64,000 bases of DNA, from assembly GCA_025655455.1 (NCBI GenBank), contig JAHXIV010000006.1, positions 20,045 through 84,044 of the forward strand. Direction: 5' to 3'. This stretch comes from a gamma proteobacterium symbiont of Taylorina sp. (GTDB lineage Bacteria; Pseudomonadota; Gammaproteobacteria; GRL18). Below are positions 811 to 56,379 of the stretch, in pieces. The notes under the pieces were generated by a model, which was not told the origin of the DNA, did not search any database, and was given only the letters and a program-made list of their open reading frames with translations. The translations under genes and the position numbers were made by a program. The first letter of the stretch is position 1; each line of letters opens with the position of its first letter.

Positions 811-1356
811 TTAAGAATCCAGTTTTTTAAAGCGTAAATAGCGTTTTAATTTCCAGAAATCATGGCGACCAACACTACCTGCTGTGATCAGAATACTATA
901 GCGTCCGTGAAAAACTGAGGTTTTAGTTCTATTTTTCAAATTTAAAATAACCAGATGTTCACTTAAAATAGTATCAGACAAAATGACTGTTTTTAATATC
1001 TGAGTATTATTCAATTGAATAAAACACCATTCAAGTTCAGTGAAAACCAGTTTTTGTATGGATTCAGGATGATTAAATAATAGATATTTACGAAATATTA
1101 ACTGAAAATAAGTACTTGCGGCTATCACAAGAATAAAGGTAAACCACATTGAAACAGGTAATAAAAATAAGGAAACAATGACCAGCATGAAAAATATCAA
1201 ATAGATTTCCAGCAGCCAGTGGTTCGGCTTTAACTCAAGTAATAAGCCACTTGCCGGTAATTTTTCAACTTCAGTAGATAAGATCTCTCTGTTTAATAAT
1301 TGTGAGTCCATCTTGATTCTGATCTTTTCCGTCATTATATATGGTAGATAATCCAC
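811..1356 (-). CDS. YgfX-like inner-membrane protein
   Basis: Two hydrophobic helices then a soluble tail (LVILNL...RRLK-like end); position between nadB and ygfZ. Confidence 0.6.
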   Translation of the reverse strand: MDYLPYIMTEKIRIKMDSQLLNREILSTEVEKLPASGLLLELKPNHWLLEIYLIFFMLVIVSLFLLPVSMWFTFILVIAASTYFQLIFRKYLLFNHPESIQKLVFTELEWCFIQLNNTQILKTVILSDTILSEHLVILNLKNRTKTSVFHGRYSILITAGSVGRHDFWKLKRYLRFKKLDS

Positions 1357-2517: not shown

Positions 2518-4086
2518 TTAATCAGTTATAGTCACCGTACTTCTATCACTGGCAACTGTTTCATCAATAATATTACCTTGCTTATCCAAGGCAAAGAGGC
2601 GTACTTCTAAAACAATGCCATCAAGTCCTTTTGGTAATAGCAGAGTAAAAATAAGTAAACCATCATACTCAAAATAAAAATCAGAAGTCAGAACTACTGT
2701 TTTCTCTTGAAATTCAGCACTGCTGGGATTTTCTTCAGAAAAAACAGGTTCTGGAATATTAAATTCTAGTAAATAACTATTGGCATCAGGATATTCTGTC
2801 CAGATAAACAGGTTATTTTTACCGCCATAGATTTTATCATTATCAATAGGCAATACCCATGAAGTTCGGGGCACTTTACTCTGAATAGTCTTGTTCTTTC
2901 CTGCTGTTACAGTAAATGTATTACCTTCCCTGTCTGTTACATCAACAGTGCCAGTTTCTACACTCACAGTTAAAGTACCATCTATTCCAGCCTGAGAATA
3001 GTTGGCAGTAAATGTTGCAGACTCAGCATTTCTTTGTGTTGTGGGACATGAGATGATATTTGCCAGAGGTGTCAGAACTTCATAATTACAGTCTACAGTA
3101 GCTGTAACTTCACCACGAATCAGTGTAATAGAGTTATTTGTTTGTACAATGGGATTTAAAACGGCAACTGTTTCTTGTTTAACTTCAATAACACTGCCAT
3201 CATCACGCTTAATGGTGGTTGCTGAATCTATCAGTGTGAATAAAGCCCCTACATCTGGAATTGTGCTGGAGGTGGTGAGCATATCTGCATCAGTGGGAGT
3301 TATTGAGAAGGAGGTACCTGTTGTGCCTTGTACTTCAGCTATTGGTGTTACATTCTGAGTCGATGCAGTAATTGTAATAACGTCATGATAAGTATTATTA
3401 CCATCTGTTGAGATTATTTCATCGGTACCAACATATCCTATATCTGCTGTATAATTAGTAATTCTCTCCTCTTGAACTCCTGTTTGTGTACCACACTCAG
3501 ATAATTCATCTTCAAGGCTCATGTATCTAATACCTTGATCTACAAGCTTCCCATGTGAAGGAAGAGTAGTAAAATCGGATAGATCAAGATCTGGTGCAGG
3601 CGAACCACAATTGCTTCCGGAGTCAAAATAAATTGATTCACCAGATACTACTGTATAATTATTAACTATTGGTGTTACATTCTGAGTTGATGCAGTAATT
3701 GTAATAAAGTCATGATAAGTATTATTACCATCTGTTGAGATTATTTCATCGGTACCAACATATCCTATATCTGCTGTATAATTAGTAATTCTCTCCTCTT
3801 GAACTCCTGTTTGTGTACCACACTCAGATAATTCATCTTCAAGGCTCATGTATCTAATACCTTGATCTACAAGCTTCCCATGTGAAGGAAGAGTAGTAAA
3901 ATCGGATAGATCAAGATCTGGTGCAGGCGAACCACAATTGCTTCCGGAGTCAAAATAAATTGATTCACCAGATACTACTGTATAATCATCAGCTAAAGCT
4001 GCATGATTTAAAATCATCAGTGTAATTATGAGAGTATGAAATAATGTTCTTAATATTACCTTTTTATAACAAAAATTATTGTACAT
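2518..4086 (-). CDS. Secreted protein: signal peptide, 2x Ig/cadherin-like domain, FecR-like domain and C-terminal beta-sandwich
   Basis: Signal-like N-terminus ending AALA; two 109-aa repeats; C-terminal ~270 aa clearly homologous to 54991..56379. Confidence 0.7.
   Translation of the reverse strand: MYNNFCYKKVILRTLFHTLIITLMILNHAALADDYTVVSGESIYFDSGSNCGSPAPDLDLSDFTTLPSHGKLVDQGIRYMSLEDELSECGTQTGVQEERITNYTADIGYVGTDEIISTDGNNTYHDFITITASTQNVTPIVNNYTVVSGESIYFDSGSNCGSPAPDLDLSDFTTLPSHGKLVDQGIRYMSLEDELSECGTQTGVQEERITNYTADIGYVGTDEIISTDGNNTYHDVITITASTQNVTPIAEVQGTTGTSFSITPTDADMLTTSSTIPDVGALFTLIDSATTIKRDDGSVIEVKQETVAVLNPIVQTNNSITLIRGEVTATVDCNYEVLTPLANIISCPTTQRNAESATFTANYSQAGIDGTLTVSVETGTVDVTDREGNTFTVTAGKNKTIQSKVPRTSWVLPIDNDKIYGGKNNLFIWTEYPDANSYLLEFNIPEPVFSEENPSSAEFQEKTVVLTSDFYFEYDGLLIFTLLLPKGLDGIVLEVRLFALDKQGNIIDETVASDRSTVTITD
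3339..3986. repeat. Tandem direct repeat, 2 x 321 bp (3339-3659 and 3666-3986), period 327 bp
   Basis: Read directly; only 2 mismatches seen. Confidence 0.95.
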
Positions 4087-4521: not shown

Positions 4522-6306
4522 ATGTTAGAGAAGCCAATATTACAAAAGAAGTTAGGTATTACAGAGCTGGTTCTGCGTGATGGCCATCAATCACTGCTTG
4601 CGACACGGATGCGTCTGGATGATATGCTTCCAATTGCAGAAAAACTGGATCAAATCGGTTACTGGTCGATAGAAAGCTGGGGTGGTGCAACCTTTGATTC
4701 CTGTATTCGTTATCTTGGTGAAGATCCCTGGGAAAGAATCAGAAAAATTAAAGAAGTGATGCCGGATACCCCTCAGCAGATGCTGCTGAGGGGACAAAAT
4801 ATTTTAGGTTATCGTCATTATGCTGATGATGTGGTGGAAAAATTTGTAGAACGTGCAGCGGTCAATGGTATTGATGTGTTTCGTATCTTTGATGCTATGA
4901 ATGATCCCAGAAATTTTATTACAGCAATCAAGGCGGCTGTGGATAATGACAGACATGCACAGGCAGCTCTTTCTTATACGACCAGTCCGGTTCATAGTCT
5001 GGATTTATGGGTAGATTTAGCCGCACAACTGCGGGATCTGGGCGCACATTCAATTTGTATCAAGGATATGGCGGGACTGCTAAAACCTTATGATGCCTAT
5101 AAACTTGTCTCATTGCTAAAGAATGAACTTGAAATTCCAGTTCATTTACATAGTCATGCTACAACCGGGCTGTCAACAGCAACTCTGCTGAAGGCTATTG
5201 AAGCAGGAGTGGATAATGTAGATACTTCTATTTCATCCATGAGTATGACCTATGGTCATTCAGCGACAGAGACCATAGTGGCAATGCTGGAAGATGAGCA
5301 GCTCACAACCGGACTTGATTTAATGCAATTAGAAGAAATTGCAGGACATTTTCGTGAAGTACGTAAGAAATATGTTAAATTTGAAGGATCTCTAAAAGGG
5401 ATTGATTCACGCATATTAGTGGCTCAGGTACCTGGTGGCATGTTGACTAATATGGAAAATCAACTGAAAGAGCAGGGGGCAAGTGAGCAATTTGATCAGG
5501 TATTGGAAGAAATTCCAAAAGTCCGGGCTGATCTGGGCTATATTCCGTTAGTGACACCTACTTCACAAATTGTGGGTACTCAGGCTGTATTGAATGTGTT
5601 AAATAATGAACGTTATAAAATAGTCACCAAAGAAACAAAGGGTATTCTTAAAGGAGAATATGGTGCGACACCGGCCAAAGTCAATCAGGCTCTGCAAACT
5701 CGAATTCTGGATGGAGAAGCAGCCATCAGCTGTCGTCCTGCTGATAAGATTGATGCGGAAATTGATCAACTCAGCAAGCAGCTGAAAAGTATTGCTATTG
5801 TGAAAAAGTTGACTCTGGCAGAAAATGAAATTGATGATATTTTAACCTATGCTCTATTTCCACAAGTGGGTCTTAATTTTCTCGAAAATCGTGATAATCT
5901 GCATGCCTTTGAAGCAATTCCCTCTGCCAATGATGTGACAGACACTGGCAGTCATATAACAAAAAATAATTCCGGCAGTAATGTTTATACCGTCACCGTC
6001 TCAGGAACTTGCTATATTGTTCAGGTTGATGAAGGTGGTGATGTTGAGACTATTTCCACTCCGTCAGACAGTTCATTTTCTATACAGGAAGAATCAATTA
6101 ATGCACCCTTAAGTGGAACTATTTTTAAAATTCTGGTTGATCAGGGACAAAAAATTAATGAGGGTGATGTATTGCTCATCCTGGAAGCAATGAAAATGGA
6201 AACTGAAATTCGTGCTGTCAAAGCAGGCATGATTATGAGTATTGATATTAAAGAAGGTGATACAGTTTCAGTTGGTGATAATTTATTGACTCTCTCTATT
6301 AATTAA
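4522..6306 (+). CDS. oadA: Oxaloacetate decarboxylase alpha subunit with biotinyl domain
   Basis: [32 protein letters not shown] biotin site. Confidence 0.92.
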
Positions 6307-6526
6307 TATTTAAAAATAGCGCCTAAATTCATAATAACTGACTTTACCTGAGTTAAGTTTTTTACTTGAGGTTATAGCAAGATACGATAATAGCGTTTTT
6401 TGATTATATAAATCTGGTACCGGGTCACATTTACTCTAATTAATGCTTATTTATTGAACTCTGATATTGTAAAATAGTCAAATATGGATTTGTCAAATTA
6501 AATAGTGATGATTAAGGAGATATCTC

Positions 6527-8209
6527 ATGACTGATAGCTACACTACAACTGCTTTTAATGATGAAAAAATGATCAACTATCCTGCTAAAATGATAGTTTC
6601 TTTGATCTTTTTTACGCTCTTTTTTCTTGGATCTACAGTCAGTGTGGCTGCTCCAGGGGCGCAATTAGTTAAAGATATTAACCCTGGTTCTGGTGGAAGT
6701 CAAATGTACAATATCAGTGCCGGTAGTGGACGGTTATTCTTTTCAGCAAATGATGAAGGTGTATCCAGTAGCAGACAAATATGGACATCTGATGGCACTG
6801 CAGCGGGAACTGTTAAATTAACCAACTTTGATTCTACTGAATATGGTATCCAATATTCGTCTAAAAACTATCTGGTTGTTAATAATATTTATTATTTTTA
6901 CCTGCGTCGTTTGTCTGACAATATCTATGAGCTTTGGAGAAGTGATGGTACTGTTGCCGGAACATTCAAACTTATCGACCTGCCAGGTTATCTTGATGAC
7001 AGATTCAAAACCGTTGGTGCAGGCGGATTATTTTACTTTGTACCCTTTACTGATAAAGAATATGGCCCTGAATTATGGGTCAGTGACGGCTCAGTTTCAG
7101 GAACCAGAATGGTTAAGGATATTAATCCAGGCACAGGGGGAAGTTCACCAAATAATTTAATGGAAGTTAATGACAAGCTTTATTTCCTCGTAAGTAATGA
7201 TCTATGGAGCAGTGATGGCACATCTGCAGGTACAAAGTTACTCGCTAATTTCAAGGAGCATTACACCAGAGATATGCGTTATATCAGCAATGTAAACGGT
7301 ATGATTTATCTTGCTTATTTAAGTGGTGAAAGTGGTGGAACTTATGAGTTATGGCAACACAATTCAAGTTCCGGACAAACAGTGATCCTTAAACGGTTTG
7401 ATGGCATTGCCTCTGATGGACAAAACTATACTGCGGTGGGTGATACGTTCTATTTTTCAGCAAAAGGGGTTGGCTCTAACTCAAAGGTCTATGATTTATG
7501 GAAAAGTGATGGTTCTGCAGATGGAACCGTGCTCGTCAAAGCTTTTGATTACTACACAGGTCCTGATAATTTGACTAATGTTGATGGCACACTCTTTTTC
7601 ACCGCCAGAGATGAAGCACATGGTACTGAATTGTGGAAAAGTAATGGTACAGCTAACGGTACCTTGATGGTTAAAGACATCAATGGTACCTCATATAGCT
7701 CTACACTTAATTGTTTTAGCCCGGTGAGTGATAGACTCTTTTTTATTCATAAAAAAACGAATTATGTCAAAGAATTATGGATGAGTGATGGTACTGAAAC
7801 AGCAACGTTTAATACTGATATTGGGGCAGATAATCTTAGATGTCCGGTCAAATTTAATGGGCAGCTGTACTTTTATGGTAACGATGCTGCAACGAAGGAT
7901 TATGGCAGTGAGTTATATCGCTATAACTTGTCTGCTAATGCCGCTGTTGTTCCTGAGATTATGGTATCGAGCAGTGGAACAAAGTTAAACATGTCATGGA
8001 ATACTGTGCCAGACTCCAGTAGTTATATATTAACCTTTGCACCTTATCCATTTAAAGGACCTGAAACGATAGGATCTGTGGATCTTGGTAATAGAACATC
8101 TTTATCTCTTGAGCTATGGAGCGGAGCGGCTTTTTATCTTATTCTACAGGCAAATCACTCTGGAATATTAAGTGATTATTCAAATATAGAACTATTTATT
8201 ATTAAGTAA
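6527..8209 (+). CDS. Secreted ELWxxDGT-repeat beta-propeller protein with FN3-like C-terminal domain
   Basis: Repeated ELW(R/K/V)SDGT and LVKDINPG motifs; signal peptide; real start may be a downstream Met. Confidence 0.85.
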   Translation: MTDSYTTTAFNDEKMINYPAKMIVSLIFFTLFFLGSTVSVAAPGAQLVKDINPGSGGSQMYNISAGSGRLFFSANDEGVSSSRQIWTSDGTAAGTVKLTNFDSTEYGIQYSSKNYLVVNNIYYFYLRRLSDNIYELWRSDGTVAGTFKLIDLPGYLDDRFKTVGAGGLFYFVPFTDKEYGPELWVSDGSVSGTRMVKDINPGTGGSSPNNLMEVNDKLYFLVSNDLWSSDGTSAGTKLLANFKEHYTRDMRYISNVNGMIYLAYLSGESGGTYELWQHNSSSGQTVILKRFDGIASDGQNYTAVGDTFYFSAKGVGSNSKVYDLWKSDGSADGTVLVKAFDYYTGPDNLTNVDGTLFFTARDEAHGTELWKSNGTANGTLMVKDINGTSYSSTLNCFSPVSDRLFFIHKKTNYVKELWMSDGTETATFNTDIGADNLRCPVKFNGQLYFYGNDAATKDYGSELYRYNLSANAAVVPEIMVSSSGTKLNMSWNTVPDSSSYILTFAPYPFKGPETIGSVDLGNRTSLSLELWSGAAFYLILQANHSGILSDYSNIELFIIK

Positions 8210-8349
8210 TATGATGTTCGTTTGATAAACCTAAAAAGCTTAGTTAAATCTACTTTGAATGTCTAAATCATTCACGTTATGATTTAACTGAATTATTCAG
8301 GATAAAAAAGCATCATTATGAATACCTTTTTTTATTTAACTGGTGAAAC

Positions 8350-11300
8350 ATGCTGATAGTTTACCCCTCTAATAAAATGGAGGATTTAGTCCAGTTACTA
8401 AAAGCGGTACAAGCTTATCGTGGTGATTCATTGAATGATGTTCTGCTTGCCGATACGATTTTGCTGGAAAGCAAGGGAATGCAGCATTGGCTCAATCTGA
8501 AACTGGCTGAGATTCAGGGCGTTGCTATGAATTACCAGTTTCAGATGCCGGGTAGTTTTATCTGGGATCTGGCCAGAACTCTGCTGGGTTCCGATCAGGT
8601 TCCCAGACAATCAGCTTATCGCAGAGAGGTGTTGGTCTGGCGGCTGGATGCCATGATGTGTACACGAGAATTTATTGATAATCCACTCTGTGCTCATGCC
8701 TGCCATTATTGGGCGGGTGATACTGAACAGCCGGATCTGCTAAAAAGATTCCAGCTGGCCACACAGCTGGCTGATATTTTTGAACAATATCTATTGTTTC
8801 GACCTGACTGGCTGTCCGGCTGGGAACAAAATAAAATGATAGCTGATGATAGCAGTATCGACACAGGCACAGAACAATGGCAGGCCTGGTTATGGCGTCA
8901 GCTGGTTTTAGACGAGCCATCTCATCCTGTTATACTGCAGAAAAAAACCATTAAAGCTATTGCTGAATATTCCGGCTCTCAACTACCTAAACAGATCATG
9001 ATCTTTGCCATCAACACCATGGCACCACAAACTCTGGATTTTTTTAATGCATTATCCTCCCGGGGACAGTGTAATATTCACCTGTTTTATCTCAACCCCT
9101 GTGTGGAATTCTGGGGAGATGTAAAAAGTGATAAAGCACGGGCACGTCAGATGCGGGAACAGAAAATTGAGCAATGGCTGGATATGAGTCCTGAGTTTAT
9201 CCTTGATAAAAGTCCGGCACAAATCAGTAATTCTTTACTGGCTAATCTGGGTCAGCAGGGAAAAGAATTTTTCAATTTATTACAGGATGTTAAAGGCTAT
9301 GAAATCAGTGCTTTTGATGAAGAATTTTATCAGGAGCCATTAGCTGATGAAAAGCCATCAGATACCAATTCGACAACAGTTTTAAGTGCTGTACAACGGG
9401 ATATTTTAACTTTATCCGAGCCGGAACAGTCGCAGACATTCAATGATCAATCCATAGTAATCAGTTCAAGTCATAGTGAATTACGAGAAATTCAGGCTCT
9501 ACATGATTATTTACTGCATCAGTTAAATGAACATCCTGACTGGAAACCACAGGATGTTGTTGTGATGTGTCCGGCCATTGAAGATTATGCACCTTATATT
9601 GAAGCTGTTTTTCGTCGTCCCTGGGATGAGGATGAAACAGATGATAGACCCCGTTTACCCTGTTCTATTGCTGATAGAACCTTAATGAATGCTGAGCCAT
9701 TAATTGCAGTCTTTGTTGAGCTATTGCAATTACCGGATAGTCGTTTTGAGATCAGCAAAATTCTTGATTATCTGCGTCTGCCTGCCTTACAGGCTAAATT
9801 TGGTTTTGAAAATTCTGAACTGGATACGATTGAGTGGTGGTTGCAGGAAGCCTCAGTTCATTGGGGACGGGATACAGCACACAAAAAACAGTTAGTGGGA
9901 CTGGATGATGCCAATGCTATGTTTACCTGGCAGTGGGGTCTGGAACGTCTTTTATCAGGTTTTGCTCAAAGTGATGCACAAGTTATCAGTTCTGAGCGTT
10001 TATTACTACCTCATGTTGAAGGACAGGATGCGCTGCTGCTTGGTCGTCTGATGCAATTACTGGAACGTCTTAAATATCATGCTGTTGAGCTATGCAGGTC
10101 ACGTACAGCACAAGAATGGCAAAGTTATCTGACTGGTTTAACAGAGAATTTTTTTCAGGTTCATCAAGAGGAACAGGCGGCTAATGAGCTGATCCGGCAG
10201 GTGATTAATGAATTAGTAGAAAATACAGCTCAGGCAAAATATGCAAAACAGATTGATTATGCTGTGGTGCGTAATTATCTACAGAAGCACTTTAGTTCAC
10301 CTGATAGTGCTAATCATTTTTTAACCGGGCAGGTTACATTCTGCTCTATGATGCCAATGCGCAGTATTCCCTTTAAAGTGATTGCTATTCTTGGTTTAAA
10401 TGATGGGCATTTTCCCCGTCAGAATACACCTATGAGTTTTGACTTAATGGCTCAGGGGCAGAGAAAACCAGGTGATCGTTCACGCCGTGGTGATGATCGT
10501 TATTTATTTTTAGAAGCACTGATTTCAGCACGAAACAATCTTTATTTGAGTTATCAGGGACGTGATATTCATAAAAATAGTGAACGCCAGCCCAGTTTAA
10601 TTGTTAAAGAATTAATGAATTATCTGACACAGAACTATCATTGGAAGTCAGCAATAGAACAGCCGCTGCATCCTTTTAGTAAAAATTGTTATATGGGCAA
10701 GCAGGCTGGTTTTGATCCCGGCTGGAAAAGAATGATCAGGCCGGGTGTGCGTCGTGATAATTGCATAAAACTTCTACCACTGGAATTAAATGAAGAGTCT
10801 GTTCGCTTAGAACATCTGGTGCGTTTTTTTGATAATCCCTTAAAAGAATTCTGTCATCATCGTTTAAATTTAAAGTTTGAAAATAATGAATTGACTATTG
10901 AAGATACTGAACCCTTTGTCACTCATGCATTGGATGAGTATCAAATTCGTGATGAGTTTTGTCAGGCCTTCTTAGATAGAGAGTTAAACAAGGAGCAAGA
11001 TCAAGAATCAGCTGAAAATTTGCTGGAAACAATTCGCATCAGTTATAAACTTGGTGGTCAATTACCTGATTCACCTTTAAGCCTTTCCAGCATGGAACAA
11101 TGGGAAGATGAAGCACTGATTATTAGTCAGGCTATTTCTGGTCAAGGTAAAATCACCACTGAGGATATTGAAGTAAAGGTGGGAGATATTCAAATTCAGA
11201 CTGAATTGCACTGGCTTAGTAAAGGTAAGCAATTATTATTGTGGCGCCCTGCAAAGCGTAACGCCAAAGATGATATGCGTCTCTGGCTGAACCATTTATT

Positions 11301-11727
11301 AGCGACTGTTTATTGTGGTTCAGCTGTGACAACTCAGGGCTTATTTTTTAATAAAAAAACAATGAAAGTTGAATCTGTTTCATTATTGCCTGTTGCAGAA
11401 GAAAATGAGGCTGTCACTTTATTGGAACAGTTAATACAGGCCTGGCAAACAGGCTTATGCCAGCCCTCTTTAATACATGCCAGACTGGGTAGAGCCTTAT
11501 TGGAAAAAAACAATCATGCAGACTGCTTTGAAGCTTTAAAAGTTGATCCAAAGCAGAATAGCAGCTGGAATAGTACGATTAAAAGTGGTTTTAATAAAAC
11601 AGGTCTTGATATGGATGATTATTTTTATTGGTTTTATCCCGACACCCCGGCATTGACTTTAGAAATTCATCAGGCATTATTTAATATTTATCAACCGCTC
11701 TATCAGCAATTGCAAGTGATGAAATAA
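8350..11727 (+). CDS. recC: Exodeoxyribonuclease V gamma subunit
   Basis: SNKMEDL start, PMRSIPFKVI, DDRYLFLEAL; operon with recB and recD. Confidence 0.93.
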   Translation: MLIVYPSNKMEDLVQLLKAVQAYRGDSLNDVLLADTILLESKGMQHWLNLKLAEIQGVAMNYQFQMPGSFIWDLARTLLGSDQVPRQSAYRREVLVWRLDAMMCTREFIDNPLCAHACHYWAGDTEQPDLLKRFQLATQLADIFEQYLLFRPDWLSGWEQNKMIADDSSIDTGTEQWQAWLWRQLVLDEPSHPVILQKKTIKAIAEYSGSQLPKQIMIFAINTMAPQTLDFFNALSSRGQCNIHLFYLNPCVEFWGDVKSDKARARQMREQKIEQWLDMSPEFILDKSPAQISNSLLANLGQQGKEFFNLLQDVKGYEISAFDEEFYQEPLADEKPSDTNSTTVLSAVQRDILTLSEPEQSQTFNDQSIVISSSHSELREIQALHDYLLHQLNEHPDWKPQDVVVMCPAIEDYAPYIEAVFRRPWDEDETDDRPRLPCSIADRTLMNAEPLIAVFVELLQLPDSRFEISKILDYLRLPALQAKFGFENSELDTIEWWLQEASVHWGRDTAHKKQLVGLDDANAMFTWQWGLERLLSGFAQSDAQVISSERLLLPHVEGQDALLLGRLMQLLERLKYHAVELCRSRTAQEWQSYLTGLTENFFQVHQEEQAANELIRQVINELVENTAQAKYAKQIDYAVVRNYLQKHFSSPDSANHFLTGQVTFCSMMPMRSIPFKVIAILGLNDGHFPRQNTPMSFDLMAQGQRKPGDRSRRGDDRYLFLEALISARNNLYLSYQGRDIHKNSERQPSLIVKELMNYLTQNYHWKSAIEQPLHPFSKNCYMGKQAGFDPGWKRMIRPGVRRDNCIKLLPLELNEESVRLEHLVRFFDNPLKEFCHHRLNLKFENNELTIEDTEPFVTHALDEYQIRDEFCQAFLDRELNKEQDQESAENLLETIRISYKLGGQLPDSPLSLSSMEQWEDEALIISQAISGQGKITTEDIEVKVGDIQIQTELHWLSKGKQLLLWRPAKRNAKDDMRLWLNHLLATVYCGSAVTTQGLFFNKKTMKVESVSLLPVAEENEAVTLLEQLIQAWQTGLCQPSLIHARLGRALLEKNNHADCFEALKVDPKQNSSWNSTIKSGFNKTGLDMDDYFYWFYPDTPALTLEIHQALFNIYQPLYQQLQVMK

Positions 11728-11729
11728 GC

Positions 11730-14700
11730 ATGACAACTGAAGTAACAGAATCCGTTGACAAACTGGATCCGTCCATTATACCACTGTCAGGTCGTCATTT
11801 AATTGAGGCCAGTGCCGGAACTGGAAAAACCTATAATATCACTCGATTATATCTGCGTCTGTTATTGGAAAAAGAACTGACGGTTCAACAAATTCTTGTC
11901 ATGACTTTTACTAAAGCTGCTACTGAAGAACTACGTGGTCGTATTGACAAGGAATTACGTAATGCCCTGACTCACTGGGGGAATCTGGGCAAACAGGATC
12001 CCTTCTTTAAAGTAATGGAAGATAAATTCCAGAAACAACAGGCAGAGCAGAAACTAAAACCTGCTTTGCTGGAACTGGATGAAGCCGCTATTTATACTAT
12101 CCATGGTTTTTGCAGTCGGGCATTAAGCAGTCAGGCTTTTGCCAGTGGACTGGCGATGGATATCTCAATGGAGTCTGATTGTAGTGAATTATTACTGGAA
12201 TCAGTGCGTGACTGGCTGCGACAAATTAATCAGCGTGAAGCTGAATTTGCATTATTGAAAGAAAAAAACTGGCATAATCCGGAACAATTTCTCAAGCAGT
12301 TCTATAGGGCTCTTAGCAGTTCAGATGCTCTGCAGACACCCGATCCTGAATCTCTGCAAAACTATTTTGAGCATCATATTGATCAAAATCTGGGTGATTT
12401 GTTTAATACTGATAAAATAGAAGTAAAACAAGCACTGGAGCAACAGCAACAGATTATATTTGCAGCTCTGGTGGATGCCCGTAAAGATGAGGATAGACGA
12501 CGGGATGAATGGCAGCAGATCTTATGGTGGCTTGATAAGGAGGATGCTGCAGACTGTCCAAAGGCTCTGGGACAGTTTATTAATGGTAATCGTTATCGGG
12601 GAAATGAACAATTAAAGCAGATATTTGAGCCCTTAAAAGAATTGAAAACCGCTTTTTCAAAACACCTGAAACAATGTCAAAAAGAACTGCAGACACAGAT
12701 CAATAATACTCCGCTCTATCAATTAGCAGCGGCGGGAATTAATACCATTCGCCATCATTTTTCCCATGAGAAAGAACAACAGGCAATAATGGATTTTGAT
12801 GATTTGATTACCTATCTGAGTAAACGGGTGCAGACAACAGCGGGTCAGGATTTAGTGACAGCACTGCGTCAGCAATATCCAGTTGCTCTGGTCGATGAAT
12901 TTCAGGATACCGATCCTGATCAATATGCAATTTTTGATGTTTTATATCCAACTCTGGTTTCAAAACCGAACCAACAATCTGCATTATTTATGATAGGGGA
13001 TCCAAAACAGGCAATTTATGCCTTCAGAGGAGGGGATATATTCACTTATCTGCAAGCACGAAAAGGGGCTGATTACCATTGGTATATGGATACCAACTGG
13101 CGTTCAGTGGCAGGCGTGGTCATGGCTTATAACCATCTTTTCTCAGGGCAGGCTCTGGGAGCCGGTGATAAGGATGTTTTCGGCTATGATATTGCTTATG
13201 AAAATATTCACTATACGCCTGAAGCGGAAGCTGCAAAATTACCGCTTAAAGACAGGTATGAAAAATATTCAGCAATTAATTATTGCTGGTTAAATGATGT
13301 CTCTGATCCCAGCGGTAAAAAAGGGGATATAACAACAGATGACTGGCGCAGTGGCCTGGCAAAATGGTGTGTGATCGAAATCAGTCGTTTACTGGTACAG
13401 GCTGAACTGGATGAAAAACCGCTGCAGGAAAAACATATTGCTATTTTAGTACGCACCGGCACAGAAGCTCAGTTAATGCGTAATGCATTGACGGAATCAG
13501 GCTTTCCTTCAGTGTATCTGAGTGATAAAGAAAGCATATTTAATAGTCAACAGGCCGGTGAATTATTACGGGTTCTTAAAGGCATATTAGAAGCAGAAAA
13601 TAACGTATTGCTTATTGCAGCATTATCAACTTGTTTAATGGGCGGAAATGCAGCAAAACTGGCACTCTATCATGAAAAAGGCTCTGAGCAGGCATGGGAA
13701 AAAAAACGTGATCGAGCGATAGCCTTACGTGATATCTGGTTGAAAAAAGGTTGTATGACGATGTTGATGCAATTGATAACTCATGATTATCAGCCTGAAC
13801 CGTCACAGCATGAGCGATCTCTGACTAATATGATTCATCTGGCAGAATTATTACAGCAGGCCTCCAGACAATATAAACATCCACAGCAATTGTTGAAATG
13901 GTTTACCGATCAATGTCAAGTTGACAATCAGCAGGATGAAGCGCAATTGCGTCTGGAAAGTGATGCCAATTTGATCCGTATTGTGACCTTACATGGTTCA
14001 AAAGGTCTGGAATATCCTATTGTATTCATTCCTTTTGCCAGTGCCTATAAAGATCCGGTACGTTTTGGCAACACGTTGAACGAACATTTCAAATATCATG
14101 ATGTCACAAGTGGTCAGATAAAACAGCAAATTGGCCAAAGTGAAGAAGCCATTAAACTGGTGACAGCAGAAGGTGAGGCTGAGACTATTCGCTTGTTATA
14201 TGTGGCTGTTACTCGTGCTGCACAGCGTTGCTATCTGGGTATAGCACCCATGAAAAACAGCTTTAAATCACCACTAGGATTAAGCTTAAAACTTTCTGAG
14301 AATAGTCAATGGGAAGCAGTATTACAAGAGCTGGTTAAAAGCAGTGACGGCAGCAGCAAGTTTTTTAAGATTGATGATAAAGAGCAAATATCAGTACATT
14401 GTCCAGCAAAAGAGAATGAGGACTTATTGATATTGTCACAGCTTAATCATGCGATTGATGAGCGCTGGGCACTCAGTTCTTTTTCTGCATTGACACGAGA
14501 TTCCTATTCGCTGCGCCAGGAACAAAAAGATCGTCTGGATGAAAGCGTAGAAACGACAGCTAAAGCTTCGCCTGATCAATCATTACGTTTTTCTTTACGA
14601 AAAGGAGCTGATAGCGGAAATTTACTGCATGATATTCTGGAGCAGACAAACTTTAAAGCAACATGTGACTGGCCTTTAGATGCACCATTGCGTCGTTTTG

Positions 14701-28946: not shown

Positions 28947-29336
28947 ATGCCAAGAAATACCAGTATCACATTGGGTGAACATTTTTCAGGATTTATTGAA
29001 GGAAAAATTCTGCAAGGGCGATTTGAATCAACCAGTGAAGCAGTAAGATCCGCTTTGCGCCTTCTTGAAGAACGTGAAACAAAATTCGATCTGCTAAGAA
29101 ACAAACTTTCCATTGGGGAAGCACAACTTGATCAAGGTGAAGGGGTAGAGGGTGATGAGTTTATGCAAGAACTGGCTGAAAGCCCTTTGCATGGGAAAAA
29201 ACGAGAAGAATTAAAAATCGGATATTATAGTGAATTTATAGACTCACATACCATTTACTATAGAATTAATTCTGCACACATCGATATTATTGATGTATTA
29301 CATCAGTCTATGGAACCATCAAAATATATTATTTAA
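28947..29336 (+). pseudogene. In-frame fusion of a ParD antitoxin with the C-terminal half of a ParE toxin
   Basis: aa 1-76 are ParD-like (NTSITLGEHF...SEAVRSALRLLE); remainder resembles the ParE C-terminal half (GKKREEL...HTIYY...DVLHQSM). Confidence 0.75.
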
Positions 29337-30401: not shown

Positions 30402-30650
30402 ATGATTGTTAATGTATCAGAAGCAAAAACAAATTTATCTAAACTTATCAATCTTGCTTATCAGGGTGAAGAAGTTATTATTGCAAAAAATAACTTACCC
30501 TTAGTTGAATTAGTAGTACACAAACCAAAAAGTAAAATAGTTTTTGGTTTGTTATCAAGCAAGGATTTTGATCAGCTGGATGATAATATTATGGATGAAA
30601 CTGATGAGGTGAATGATTTATTTTATAATCATGAAATTAAACCAAAATGA
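30402..30650 (+). CDS. Phd/YefM-family antitoxin
   Basis: VNVSEAKTNLSKLI...GEEVIIA; AGGAG ribosome-binding site before ATG 30402. Confidence 0.88.
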   Translation: MIVNVSEAKTNLSKLINLAYQGEEVIIAKNNLPLVELVVHKPKSKIVFGLLSSKDFDQLDDNIMDETDEVNDLFYNHEIKPK

Positions 30651-31015
30651 ATATTCTTATAGACACTCATATTTTTATATGGCTGTTAAAAAAACCTGAA
30701 AAATTAGAGCCCAGACATATTCAGATTTTAAAATCACCCAATGTTTTTTTTCTCAGCTCAATCAGTATTGCAGAAATGATGATTAAATCCAGTGTTGGCA
30801 AATTAAATGTAGATTATGATCCGATAGATATGGCATTGAAAAGCGGCTTAAAACTTCTTGATTTTAGTGCACAAGATGCAAATCATTTAAAAAAGTTACC
30901 CTTATATCATAAAGATCCTTTTGACAGAATGTTGATTGCTCAAAGCCTTTGTCAGAGCCTTCCAATAATGACATGTGATAAAATATTTAAAGATTATGAG
31001 TGTAATTTAATATAG
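30647..31015 (+). CDS. PIN-domain (VapC-like) toxin
   Basis: LIDTHIFIW, HKDPFDRMLIAQ; ATGA overlap with the antitoxin. Confidence 0.92.
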   Translation: MNILIDTHIFIWLLKKPEKLEPRHIQILKSPNVFFLSSISIAEMMIKSSVGKLNVDYDPIDMALKSGLKLLDFSAQDANHLKKLPLYHKDPFDRMLIAQSLCQSLPIMTCDKIFKDYECNLI

Positions 31016-36328: not shown

Positions 36329-36850
36329 CTACAAATATTGTCGAATCGTGAGTTCATTGCCCCGTTGAGTGAACTCTAATTGTTTGAGTACGGACATACC
36401 CAATAATATTTCTTCCAGATTGGGTGTGATAATGGCTTTAATATTATAGAGGTGAATTTGACCGATACTGAGTTTGTCTATGCGTGTTTGATAACCTTTA
36501 GTGCGGCCATTGGCTGTGGAAATTGGAATGACATGACCTTTTTTCAGCTTTAGCCGTCTTGTCAATTGTTCTGGTATAGCAACAAAAGTGGCACCGGTGT
36601 CCAGTAGAAAAATAACTTTTTGGTCATTAATTTTGCCCGTGGTGACATAATGTCCGGCACGATTACGCTTTAAAGTGACTTCAATTTGATTATTGCCGGT
36701 TTGAGTGGATTGAACCTGTTGATTGGGATTGTATTGCTTGTCAATTTCACCTTGAAACAGATAGGTCAACAGACCAATTGTCATCATTATAGCAACGATG
36801 ATCATGCCTTTTCCTATGCTATTGGTATTGTTATTAGTTTTAGGGTTCAT
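36329..36850 (-). CDS. Clan AA (retropepsin-like) aspartic protease, TIGR02281 type
   Basis: GHYVTTG, FLLDTGAT, LLGMSVL; N-terminal TM segment. Confidence 0.9.
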   Translation of the reverse strand: MNPKTNNNTNSIGKGMIIVAIMMTIGLLTYLFQGEIDKQYNPNQQVQSTQTGNNQIEVTLKRNRAGHYVTTGKINDQKVIFLLDTGATFVAIPEQLTRRLKLKKGHVIPISTANGRTKGYQTRIDKLSIGQIHLYNIKAIITPNLEEILLGMSVLKQLEFTQRGNELTIRQYL

Positions 36851-44600: not shown

Positions 44601-45536
44601 ATGATAAATACTCAAAAACAGGTTCAGGTTTTAACTCTTATCATGCTAATCTGTTTCGCTTTTGATGTGTATGCTCAGACAAAAAATGGTTTTGATCTGT
44701 CCAATGCATCAATTAAATATGAGGAAATATTTTCCGGTGGGCCACCAAGAGATGGAATTCCATCCATTGATAAACCTAAATTTATCGATATAAGCCAAGT
44801 GGATTTTTTACAGGATGATGATATTGTTATCGGACTTGTCCGTGCTGATAAGGCGCGTGCTTATCCAAGCCGCATCCTGGTCTGGCATGAAATTGTTAAT
44901 GATATAATTGATGGTGAAGCGGTTGTAGTGACTTATTGCCCCTTATGTGGGACAGCCATGGTTTTTGATCGTCATATTGCAGGGAAATTACATACTTTCG
45001 GTGTTTCAGGACTTTTATATCAAAGTGATGTGCTGATGTATGATAGAGAAAGTGAATCTCTCTGGTCCCAACTGGCCATGAAGTCTGTGAGTGGTTCAGA
45101 GCTTGGAAATAAATTGTTCTGGCTTCCCAGTGAACATTTGACCTGGAAAGCCTGGCGGGAAAAATACCCTGATGGGGAAGTTCTGTCGACTGATACCGGT
45201 CATAATAGGAATTACAGCAGTGCCGCCTATTCATCCTATTTTGCCTCAGATCAAACCATGTTTCCTGTGCGTTATACACGTAAAGAACTCTCGAAGAAGG
45301 TATGGGTGATAGGTGTTATTATTAATGGACAGGCGAAAGCCTATGCTGTGAATAAACTCTCTGTTAATAGTGTCATTAAAGATAATTTAGGAAATCAGAA
45401 AATTACGATTAAATATGATGCTGAACGAAAGCATCATCAAATTATGAATCAACAGGGTGAACAAATTCCATCGGTATTAGTCTTCTGGTTTGCATGGCAG
45501 GCATTTTATCCCCAAACTCAATTATGGAATCCTTAG
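44601..45536 (+). CDS. DUF3179-family exported protein
   Basis: SGGPPRDGIPSID, WHEIVND, YCPLCGT, FGVSGLLY, FWFAW. Confidence 0.88.
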   Translation: MINTQKQVQVLTLIMLICFAFDVYAQTKNGFDLSNASIKYEEIFSGGPPRDGIPSIDKPKFIDISQVDFLQDDDIVIGLVRADKARAYPSRILVWHEIVNDIIDGEAVVVTYCPLCGTAMVFDRHIAGKLHTFGVSGLLYQSDVLMYDRESESLWSQLAMKSVSGSELGNKLFWLPSEHLTWKAWREKYPDGEVLSTDTGHNRNYSSAAYSSYFASDQTMFPVRYTRKELSKKVWVIGVIINGQAKAYAVNKLSVNSVIKDNLGNQKITIKYDAERKHHQIMNQQGEQIPSVLVFWFAWQAFYPQTQLWNP

Positions 45537-54990: not shown

Positions 54991-56379
54991 ATGAAACAAA
55001 TAACTACTATTTTTCTTGTCATGATAATAAGTACTTCATTAAGCTTTGCATATGATTTTTCTTATATTATTAATAATCCTTCTGCCGCTACAGCAGATGA
55101 TTATATTGTCAGCACCAGCAATGCAGTGATAAAAAGTGAAACAGATGCCATCTACTGGAAACAGGATATTGGTGCAGAAACCATGGATGGGGCTGAGCCT
55201 GGAACCATAATTTATCATTTTAATTTTGATAAACCAGTTTCTGAAGCTAAACTTTTTATCCGCACTAGTACTTTCCATTGGGATTACAGCCAGGGGCATA
55301 GCTATATTTATGCATCAACGGATGGTAGCAACTGGATAAAACTCGTAGAAGCGTTGCCTCCTGAATTTGCAGGTGCTAATACCCAGTCCTATAATGATTT
55401 TTTACCAGCAAGCTTTTCAGGCAGTAAAGATATCTGGCTCAAGGTGGAACTAAATTCCTATGGCTCAAATGCAGCCAACGGTAGTGTTTGGACAAATACT
55501 GCTCAGCACTCAAGATATAGTGCTAGCATCGATAATAAAACCTTTCAACTGGATGTTGATTATCTGCTTACGGCTGAAGTGCAAAGCACAACAGGTACTT
55601 CCTTTTCAATAACCCCTATCGATGCAGATACACTCACTACTTCCGGTACTATCCCGGATGTTGGTGCATTACTCACACTGGAGAACTCCAGCACAACCAT
55701 TCAGAGAGATGACGGTAGTATCCTTGAAGTTAAACAGAAAGCAGTGGTTAGTCTTAATCCGGAAAGTATCAATATTCTGCGTGGTGAAGTCACAGTTGCA
55801 GTTAGTTGTAATTATGAAGTCCAGACACCTCTTGCCAATATAACCTCATGTCCTGCAATACAAAGAGGAGCTGAGTCTGCAAAATTTACGACCAGCTATT
55901 CCCAGAATGGTTTGAATGGTAGCTTAAAAGTCACTGTTATTTCCGGCACTGTTGATATTATAGATAGGAATGGAGCTACTTTTACTATAGCTGCGGGAAA
56001 TAACAAGACTATTCAGAGTATAGTGCCTCGTACCTCGTGGGTATTACCTATTGATAATGATAAACTTTATGGTGGTTATGACAATTTGTTTATCTGGACT
56101 GAGTATCCAGATGCTGATAGTTACCTACTGGAATTTAATTTTCCAGAACCTGTATTTTTTGAAGAAAATCCCGGCAGTGCTGAATTTCAACAGCAAACAG
56201 CAGTTCTGACTTCTGATTTTTATATTGAGTATGATGGTTTACTTATTTTTATTCTGCCACTACCAAAAGGCTTTGACGGCATTGTTTTAGAAGTACGTCT
56301 CTTTGCTTTAGACAAGCAAGGAAATATCATTGCTGACAGTGTTGCCAGTGATAGAAGTACAATTACAGTGAAAGACTAG
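54991..56379 (+). CDS. Secreted protein: signal peptide, beta-sandwich passenger domain, FecR-like domain and C-terminal domain
   Basis: Signal peptide ending LSFA; 55573-56379 is homologous to 2518-3339. Confidence 0.7.
   Translation: MKQITTIFLVMIISTSLSFAYDFSYIINNPSAATADDYIVSTSNAVIKSETDAIYWKQDIGAETMDGAEPGTIIYHFNFDKPVSEAKLFIRTSTFHWDYSQGHSYIYASTDGSNWIKLVEALPPEFAGANTQSYNDFLPASFSGSKDIWLKVELNSYGSNAANGSVWTNTAQHSRYSASIDNKTFQLDVDYLLTAEVQSTTGTSFSITPIDADTLTTSGTIPDVGALLTLENSSTTIQRDDGSILEVKQKAVVSLNPESINILRGEVTVAVSCNYEVQTPLANITSCPAIQRGAESAKFTTSYSQNGLNGSLKVTVISGTVDIIDRNGATFTIAAGNNKTIQSIVPRTSWVLPIDNDKLYGGYDNLFIWTEYPDADSYLLEFNFPEPVFFEENPGSAEFQQQTAVLTSDFYIEYDGLLIFILPLPKGFDGIVLEVRLFALDKQGNIIADSVASDRSTITVKD

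Follow-up and report, generated by a model that had tools for sequence, protein, structure and literature searches.

In the anti-sigma regulator PupR, the periplasmic region consists of a CJM subdomain with a twisted β-solenoid-like fold, followed by an STN subdomain of β-α-β repeats, and both subdomains are required for binding of the transducer (PMC7186176). A Gly-Thr site is present in a subset of FecR-type regulators, such as FoxR. FecR domains occur in exported proteins as well: Lsa33 of Leptospira is a FecR-domain surface adhesin that binds laminin and plasminogen and appears to be surface exposed (PMC3444417), and a FecR-domain protein of Legionella was 8.3-fold enriched in the supernatant of the wild type versus that of a type II secretion system (T2SS) mutant (PMC12239567). 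Here, we compare with these systems two genes, A and B, from a 64,000-nucleotide stretch of DNA (hereafter, the window; GC content of 38.7%) of a gammaproteobacterium that lives in the gill of the deep-sea lucinid clam Taylorina. An earlier note on the window had read the two genes, about 52 kb apart, as members of a family of modular secreted proteins, in which unrelated N-terminal passengers (heads) are joined to one shared C-terminal module (tail) made of a FecR-like part and a β-sandwich.

We found that the proteins encoded by A and B indeed share a C-terminal module that starts abruptly at the residues AEVQ (BLASTP of residues 250 to 522 of A against residues 195 to 462 of B, 74% identity over 273 aa, E = 8e−145). 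This tail is predicted to be a FecR/PupR-CJM-like twisted β-solenoid fused to a sandwich of the fibronectin type III (FN3) or immunoglobulin (Ig) type. It recurs behind many unrelated heads, including those of at least nine paralogs in the metagenome-assembled genome (MAG) of the Taylorina symbiont, and it appears to evolve in concert within genomes. Judging from the architecture of these proteins, docking of the tail to a shared partner would be its most likely function. The parts of the two genes are as follows.

2518 to 4086, minus strand: gene A (P0027), an open reading frame (ORF) of 522 aa that comprises a signal peptide, a head of two 109-aa copies, and a 273-aa tail.
3991 to 4086, minus strand: predicted Sec signal peptide of A (aa 1 to 32, ending in ...HAALA/DD) without a lipobox, read from the sequence with a crude hydrophobicity heuristic.
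3340 to 3987, minus strand: head of A, made of two near-perfect tandem copies of a 327-bp (109-aa) module, each with a Cys pair, found with Tandem Repeats Finder (TRF).
2875 to 3339, minus strand: first half of the tail of A (aa 250 to 404), a predicted FecR/PupR-CJM-like all-β domain, from Foldseek and family-level Pfam FecR matches.
2521 to 2874, minus strand: second half of the tail of A (aa 405 to 522, from VPRTSW), a predicted FN3/Ig-like β-sandwich, from family conservation and from the predicted local distance difference test (pLDDT) scores and Foldseek matches of the equivalent part of B.
54991 to 56379, plus strand: gene B (P0001), an ORF of 462 aa, delimited also by BLASTP, that comprises a signal peptide, a 174-aa head, and a 268-aa tail.
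54991 to 55050, plus strand: predicted Sec signal peptide of B (aa 1 to 20, ending in ...SLSFA/YD), from the same kind of reading and heuristic as that of A.
55051 to 55572, plus strand: head of B (aa 21 to 194), with an orthologous head in P0057 (blastp, 62% identity).
55573 to 56022, plus strand: predicted FecR/CJM-like half of the tail of B (aa 195 to 344), from Pfam FecR (E = 0.052) and AlphaFold2 (AF2; pLDDT of 88 to 98).
56023 to 56376, plus strand: predicted FN3/Ig-like half of the tail of B (aa 345 to 462), all-β in AF2 (pLDDT of 90 to 98) and with FN3/Ig matches in Foldseek.

The boundary of the tail is equally sharp in the DNA. The two tails are 79% identical over 806 nt, from the AEVQ codons to the stop codon, and neither the flanks nor the upstream coding parts of A and B can be aligned. 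At the protein level, BLASTP revealed no second significant segment beyond the tail, and the N-terminal regions are unrelated, as the earlier note held. The window has no third copy of the tail (tblastn). Identity between the two tails is higher toward the C terminus, which the note had also observed: in segments of 30 aa, it ranges from 0.77 to 0.90 across residues 136 to 270 versus 0.57 to 0.73 across residues 16 to 150, with a value of 0.87 in the first segment (residues 1 to 30). The reading frames of both genes are intact, and the dN/dS ratio of 0.22 between the tails indicates purifying selection on both.

The heads of A and B have no sequence match in Pfam, NCBIfam, or PDB. The duplication in the head of A, which the note had recognized, is real: TRF reports 2.0 copies with a period of 327 and 99% identity (3339 to 3986), and 4 of the 109 aa differ from one copy to the other. 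An independent assembly of this metagenome is consistent with two real copies, for its unitig across the repeat has a depth of 46, versus ~23.5 in the flanks. A single-copy ortholog of this head, 66% identical, is found at positions 6699 to 7934 of the metagenome contig L003. The labels given earlier to the two heads, Ig/cadherin-like for A and discoidin-like for B, could not be confirmed, given the absence of database matches and, for the head of B, an unreliable AF2 model (pLDDT of <50, even with an alignment of 96 sequences).

The assignment of the first half of the tail to FecR rests on family-wide Pfam matches and on the first of two Foldseek searches. The Pfam FecR model (PF04773) matches 55 of the 104 family members scanned (best E = 2.2e−17). 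On the genes of the window alone, it stays below the threshold in B (E = 0.052, aa 229 to 285) and has no match in A; the FecR resemblance described in the note therefore holds at the level of the family but is weak for A and B by themselves. An AF2 model from a shallow alignment was confident for tail residues 30 to 160 only, and in Foldseek this model matched PupR's C-terminal domain for cell-surface signaling (CCSSD; 6ovk_R, E = 2e−7, probability of 1.0, 141 columns), as well as 4m0h and 4m0n (putative anti-sigma factor BDI_1681) and then, weakly, FN3 tandems. With an alignment of 96 sequences, the whole tail of B was modeled at a pLDDT of 88 to 98 as an all-β structure, and Foldseek matched this full-length model to generic FN3/Ig folds only (the Fn3-like modules 3pdd and 3pdg of CbhA; the Ig-like domain of sulfite oxidase). 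Pfam, Foldseek, and AF2 together bear out the FecR-like plus β-sandwich composition proposed for the tail.

Across the 104 members scanned, no Pfam or NCBIfam model covers the FN3/Ig-like domain. In sequence searches of PDB, one tail profile (A1) had no match, and another (A2) had just PHIKZ164 at E = 0.4. Conservation in these proteins is strongest in the tail and, within the family, peaks in its FN3/Ig-like half. Conserved columns are concentrated at the junction (VPRTSWVLPIDxDKxYGG) and in the sandwich; P164, W180, and Y189 never vary, and ≥98% of the sequences keep E192, N204, R247, and D265. The Cys pair that had been described as conserved (C84 and C98) is kept by ≥90% of the close clade but by only ~50% of the whole family.

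Beyond 26 close homologs, a search of 1.84 billion representative proteins with a profile built from 17 tails retrieved 127 clusters at E ≤ 1e−3, 76 of them at E ≤ 1e−30. Among the 91 proteins with a full-length tail, the tail forms the extreme C terminus in 86, and the heads have a median length of 162 aa, the largest reaching ~530 aa. Sequence beyond the tail is seen in P0038 (a 12-aa extension), in P0079 and P0090 (further C-terminal domains), and in the high-GC members P0076 and P0080, in which the terminal sandwich is present twice, the second time after a normal tail. This duplication shows that the sandwich is able to act as a separate module. The head of P0076 consists of RCC1 repeats, and that of P0080 has no assigned domain.

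The heads are highly diverse. The 104 members contain 44 Pfam families, of which FecR is found in 55 members and each of the other 43 in one or two. Head families include Lcl_C, PPC, LRR, RCC1, YDG, CarboxypepD_reg, Laminin_G_3, FG-GAP, SBBP, Trypsin, SdrD_B, Calx-beta, Kazal, and Toxin_R_bind_N. At the other extreme are head-less members, in which nothing but a short linker separates the signal peptide from the tail (P0068, 323 aa; P0062, 343 aa; P0071, 356 aa; P0069, 364 aa), and the tail is thus an autonomous unit. The linkers of these minimal members are short and either acidic or Pro/Thr-rich, and Pro/Thr-rich linkers are frequent in the family. A hydrophobic N terminus is present in 73 of the 94 complete members and a lipobox-like motif in nine, A and B not being among the latter. 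In the Taylorina MAG, the paralogs number at least nine (A, B, P0002, P0003, P0017, P0028, P0029, P0033, and P0032); they are distributed over separate contigs, have differing heads, and in several cases are already named “FecR family protein” by the Prokaryotic Genome Annotation Pipeline of NCBI. The idea of swappable passengers is well supported by this diversity, since many further paralogs with other passengers were found and the FecR-like half, although part of a known superfamily, occurs here in a different architecture.

Heads and tails of these proteins have different histories. On L003, a contig from the Joint Genome Institute (JGI; 3300021183), three family genes with differing heads lie in tandem (5342 to 9314), and the same arrangement is found on L004. 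One of the L003 heads is lipocalin-like (“VPTIAGVYSG”), the middle gene has the single-copy head of the gene A type, and the remaining gene has yet another head. Between A and its L003 ortholog, heads are 66% and tails 59% identical, and between B and P0057, heads are 62% and tails 33% identical. Paralogous tails within a genome, in contrast, reach an identity of 74% for A and B and of 86% for the L003 neighbors. Over 33 tails, mean identity is 66.6% within Taylorina and 71% within the JGI set, versus 57.9% between the two. Neighboring L003 tails have in common an exact tract of 215 nt and are 91.8% identical over 704 nt, while their heads are unrelated. In the independent assembly, unitigs at positions 2536 to 2694 of the window (the 3′ end of the tail of A) have a depth of 52 to 55 versus ~24 in the flanks, which indicates that another paralog of the same genome has an identical stretch of >130 nt; judging by protein sequences, this paralog is probably P0002 or P0029. 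Across tail codons ~196 to 240 (2620 to 2754 on the minus strand; 56143 to 56277 on the plus strand), third positions are 93 to 97% identical while ~20% of the amino acids differ, a pattern that, in this small sample, resembles a recently converted tract in which most of the later changes have been non-synonymous. Given the contrast between head and tail identities, the 215-nt tract, the doubled depth, and the codon pattern, these comparisons point to homogenization of the tails within genomes by gene conversion, with heads that are orthologous between genomes. A 921-aa ORF without a Pfam match adjoins the L003 array (10021 to 12786), and the equivalent called gene on L004 encodes 1,245 aa.

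We tentatively propose, with somewhat less than even confidence, that the tail provides common docking or retention for many binding heads, which would thereby share one partner or export route. Heads and tail would be exported through Sec, and the constant tail would then dock with, or be retained by, a single partner common to all of them, located in the cell envelope or at the surface; alternatively, the tail may present the heads to a single route of export, for instance type II secretion. The heads tied together in this way would include LRR, Lcl_C, lipocalin-like, β-propeller, and protease or inhibitor domains, together with the duplicated module of A. The bacterium would thereby gain a range of binding proteins, either displayed or secreted, whose role would plausibly be contact with the host or with particles. 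We favor docking because of the Sec signals, the extracellular type of heads and linkers, the constancy of the C terminus, the head-less forms, the homogenization of the tails, and the role of CJM in protein-protein binding. Lsa33 and the Legionella protein set a precedent for export and surface activity of FecR-domain proteins, and in distant members the start of the tail has a sub-threshold likeness to the retention module of LapA.

Several observations weigh against the docking hypothesis. The head-less members suggest that the tail has an activity of its own rather than an anchoring role alone, and the concerted evolution is explicable by gene conversion without a shared partner. Around the members whose contexts were examined (A, B, L001, L003, and L005; Taylorina B, P0002, and P0003 have no contig record), there is no conserved neighbor and no candidate partner gene. 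The co-occurring export or anchoring gene that the earlier note had envisaged was likewise found in none of these contexts. PupR is not among the top 50 Foldseek matches of the high-confidence full-length model of B, which was searched uncropped, with both halves together. The signal peptides were called with a crude hydropathy heuristic, and the symbiont is represented by a DNA metagenome only, with no RNA data.

Some of the same evidence could be read differently. The tail itself may be a FecR-domain adhesin that, like Lsa33 or LipL45, binds the host matrix or another surface, with the heads adding or tuning specificity; we regard this as unlikely, though worth weighing. The minimal members and the strong conservation of the tail relative to the rest of the proteins are what such an adhesin would predict, as are the laminin and plasminogen binding and apparent surface exposure of Lsa33 (PMC3444417), and sub-threshold matches to the NCBIfam models of Lsa33, LipL45, and Lsa19 were obtained for 15, 9, and 5 of the 104 members, respectively. 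However, the Lsa33 and LipL45 matches are far under the curated cutoffs and do not include A or B, both of which also lack a lipobox. Moreover, the L005 contig, on which DabA and DabB are present, apparently comes from a free-living chemoautotroph that carries a family member, and a host ligand is therefore not obligatory.

The C-terminal position of the tail in 86 of 91 proteins, behind 44 head families, also raises the question of whether the cassette, or only the Ig-like domain at its end, directs secretion or sorting through a dedicated pathway of outer-membrane export or attachment, by analogy with the Ig-like domain that ends the substrates of the type IX secretion system (T9SS). The terminal domain is an Ig/FN3-like sandwich of ~115 aa, and homogenization within genomes is compatible with a single machine that recognizes all tails. 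Nevertheless, we consider a sorting signal quite unlikely. Among the families listed for the 104 members (the first 25 of 44 Pfam families, and NCBIfam), there is no match to Por_Secre_tail, to the CTD (C-terminal domain) that T9SS substrates carry, or to another sorting-domain hidden Markov model (HMM). With 270 aa and two folded domains, the tail is far larger than known sorting tags, and no export gene adjoins any member examined. Duplication of the terminal domain in P0076 and P0080 and the presence of domains after it in P0079 and P0090 also argue against a terminal signal. To our knowledge, T9SS has not been found in Gammaproteobacteria. An autotransporter β-barrel finds no support either: none is matched among the Pfam families listed, the tail is modeled by AF2 as a soluble solenoid plus sandwich, and the last residue of both A and B is Asp and not aromatic.

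The homology of the tail to FecR, and the fact that FecR-domain proteins are known partners of sensors (PMC7186176, PMC5192318), would be in line with a role as periplasmic sensing adaptors, in which the head binds a signal and the FecR-like tail relays it to a membrane sensor, as in pairs of FecR with a TonB transducer or of LysM-FecR proteins with CHASE2 kinases. We find this very unlikely, and, as far as sequence and structure prediction can tell, the tail proteins are not FecR anti-sigma regulators. An anti-sigma domain has no Pfam match in A or B, nor is one among the families listed for the 104 members. No transmembrane (TM) helix is evident in A or B after the signal peptide, in agreement with the earlier note; the lone other hydrophobic window, LLIFTLLLPKGLDG, with a Kyte-Doolittle hydropathy (KD19) of ~1.7, is a confident β-strand that contains Pro, Lys, and Asp. 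The STN subdomain is absent, with the C-terminal 115 aa being all-β (pLDDT of 90 to 98) and having FN3/Ig matches only in Foldseek. There is no gene for an extracytoplasmic function (ECF) sigma factor, a kinase, or a TonB-dependent transducer or receptor beside A, B, L001, L003, or L005, in line with the note as regards ECF sigma factors and TonB receptors near the two genes. At the Gly-Thr autoproteolytic position, A has SATF and B has SAKF, and the processing motif is lost in the A/B clade, while the full-length tails that have GT.F (at least 10 of 91) all belong to distant members. In addition, nine or more paralogs with adhesin-type heads would be unusual for a signaling adaptor. Self-cleavage at a Gly-Thr site that would release the head was considered separately and rejected for A and B on account of their SA(T/K)F motif.

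Lastly, an assembly chimera, a collapsed repeat, or pseudogenes are scarcely credible, for although the source is a short-read MAG, gene A holds a tandem repeat of 99% identity, and three paralogs have no record of the encoding contig, both reading frames are intact with a dN/dS ratio of 0.22, the doubled repeat depth in the independent assembly supports two real copies, and unrelated metagenomes contain orthologs of both heads with tails attached.

Close homologs are named in NCBI as originating from the MAG “gamma proteobacterium symbiont of Taylorina sp.” The symbiont of Taylorina solomonensis has been assigned to the family SZUA-152 of the Thiohalomonadales, whose members are sulfur-oxidizing gill symbionts and kin of the Alviniconcha gamma-1 and Gigantopelta symbionts, and fluorescence in situ hybridization with catalyzed reporter deposition (CARD-FISH) located the symbionts intracellularly in two host species (PMC9938160). 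The window is ordinary chromosome, with nadB, ygfZ, recBCD, tatABC, his genes, and the prp operon. Housekeeping genes flank A and B, neither an ECF sigma factor nor a TonB receptor being among them, and members elsewhere likewise lie among housekeeping genes or in tandem arrays of their own family. Scans with tail patterns yielded one locus (L002) in genome contigs and no match in metagenome contigs. No tRNA or Rfam feature was detected in the window, and promoter and terminator scans of this AT-rich DNA gave no useful signal over background.

Other genes of the window have features of their own. At a distance of 2.4 kb from gene A, a 560-aa exported protein (6527 to 8209, plus strand) contains eight ELWxxDGT repeats (TIGR04534, E = 4.4e−74), and its last ~90 aa look FN3-like, with the motif “W..VPDSSSYILTF.” Identity of this C terminus with the FN3-like domain of the tail was considered and rejected (tblastn, E = 0.31; hhalign, probability of 3.8%). 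A 174-aa membrane protein (811 to 1335, minus strand) has a borderline match to the CptA toxin (PF07254, E = 1e−5, 26.1 bits versus a cutoff of 27.3), and its gene adjoins one with a GCV_T domain (1375 to 2406), which we read as ygfZ-like. Two further proteins begin with a hydrophobic segment: one of 173 aa (36329 to 36850, minus strand) continues into a retropepsin-like aspartyl protease domain (PF13975, E = 1.8e−24), and one of 311 aa (44601 to 45536, plus strand) has a full DUF3179 (E = 3.4e−91). By eye only, the ORFs at 28947 to 29336 and 30647 to 31015 resemble a ParD-type antitoxin and a PIN-domain protein, respectively, and the more than 1 kb between them holds no ORF of ≥90 aa.

With respect to novelty, the FecR domain is already known, and several of the paralogs carry the FecR family name through automatic annotation. 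The literature that we searched contains no description of a fixed FecR-like plus FN3-like C-terminal cassette, of such a cassette joined to dozens of head types, of its expansion in a chemosynthetic symbiont, or of its concerted evolution. The concerted evolution of the tails, the minimal members without a head, and the fact that the Gly-Thr motif of FecR has been lost go beyond what the earlier note had proposed. The family is well delimited and, on present evidence, does not amount to a categorically new system. Little is understood of how the chemosynthetic symbionts that live inside the cells of deep-sea animals recognize and attach to their hosts, and the family, with its nine or more copies, its adhesin-type heads (LRR, Lcl_C, and propellers), and a tail that stays uniform within a genome, offers a concrete set of candidates for surface or secreted interaction proteins. 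In it, a FecR/CJM fold that is best known from the anti-sigma factors of iron signaling is reused as the C-terminal module of exported modular proteins. The newly defined FN3-like domain is a candidate for domain databases, and, should there be a common partner, the tail would help in identifying it and might also serve as a display tag.

Of the described systems, the FecR/PupR regulators share with the tail the fold of its first ~155 aa, which is predicted to be all-β and twisted β-solenoid-like, as in CJM, and distant high-GC members of the family keep an “RGT.F” motif. The tail proteins differ in starting with a signal peptide in place of a cytoplasmic anti-sigma domain and a TM helix, in having the FN3/Ig-like sandwich where the STN subdomain would stand, and in carrying the FecR-like domain C-terminal to variable passengers. 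Lsa33 (LIC11834), LipL45, and Lsa19 of Leptospira resemble them as a paralogous family of exported, non-regulatory FecR-domain proteins in a host-associated bacterium. However, NCBIfam names these three as lipoproteins, whereas A and B lack a lipobox and match neither NF047849 nor NF033165, and the Leptospira proteins have neither an FN3-like C-terminal domain nor described variable heads.

Variable adhesins of the LapA type are held at the outer membrane by a constant domain, the retention module. In two distant family members, the first ~65 aa of the tail (residues 337 to 401 of P0076 and 170 to 234 of P0125) align with positions 3 to 68 of the HMM of this module (NF033682), with scores of 24.5 and 29.4 bits, respectively, against a cutoff of 50 and with no match for A or B. 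The LapA module, though, is located N-terminally on giant RTX proteins secreted by type I systems, while the tail is located C-terminally on small proteins that are predicted to be exported by Sec. A conserved terminal module behind many unrelated domains is also the arrangement of dockerins, of SLH domains, of autotransporter β-domains, and of the T9SS CTD, which is an Ig-like sandwich at the extreme C terminus; among the families listed, none of these anchoring and sorting modules has a sequence or HMM relationship with the tail. A bolder reading, which we judge decidedly unlikely, is that the family forms an undescribed display system of marine sulfur-oxidizing Gammaproteobacteria, in which the cassette would be the recognition or retention element, one envelope partner would hold or export all of the carriers, and conversion would keep the tails matched while the heads diversify. 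The part that the LapA retention module or the T9SS CTD plays elsewhere would here fall to a C-terminal, Sec-dependent element.

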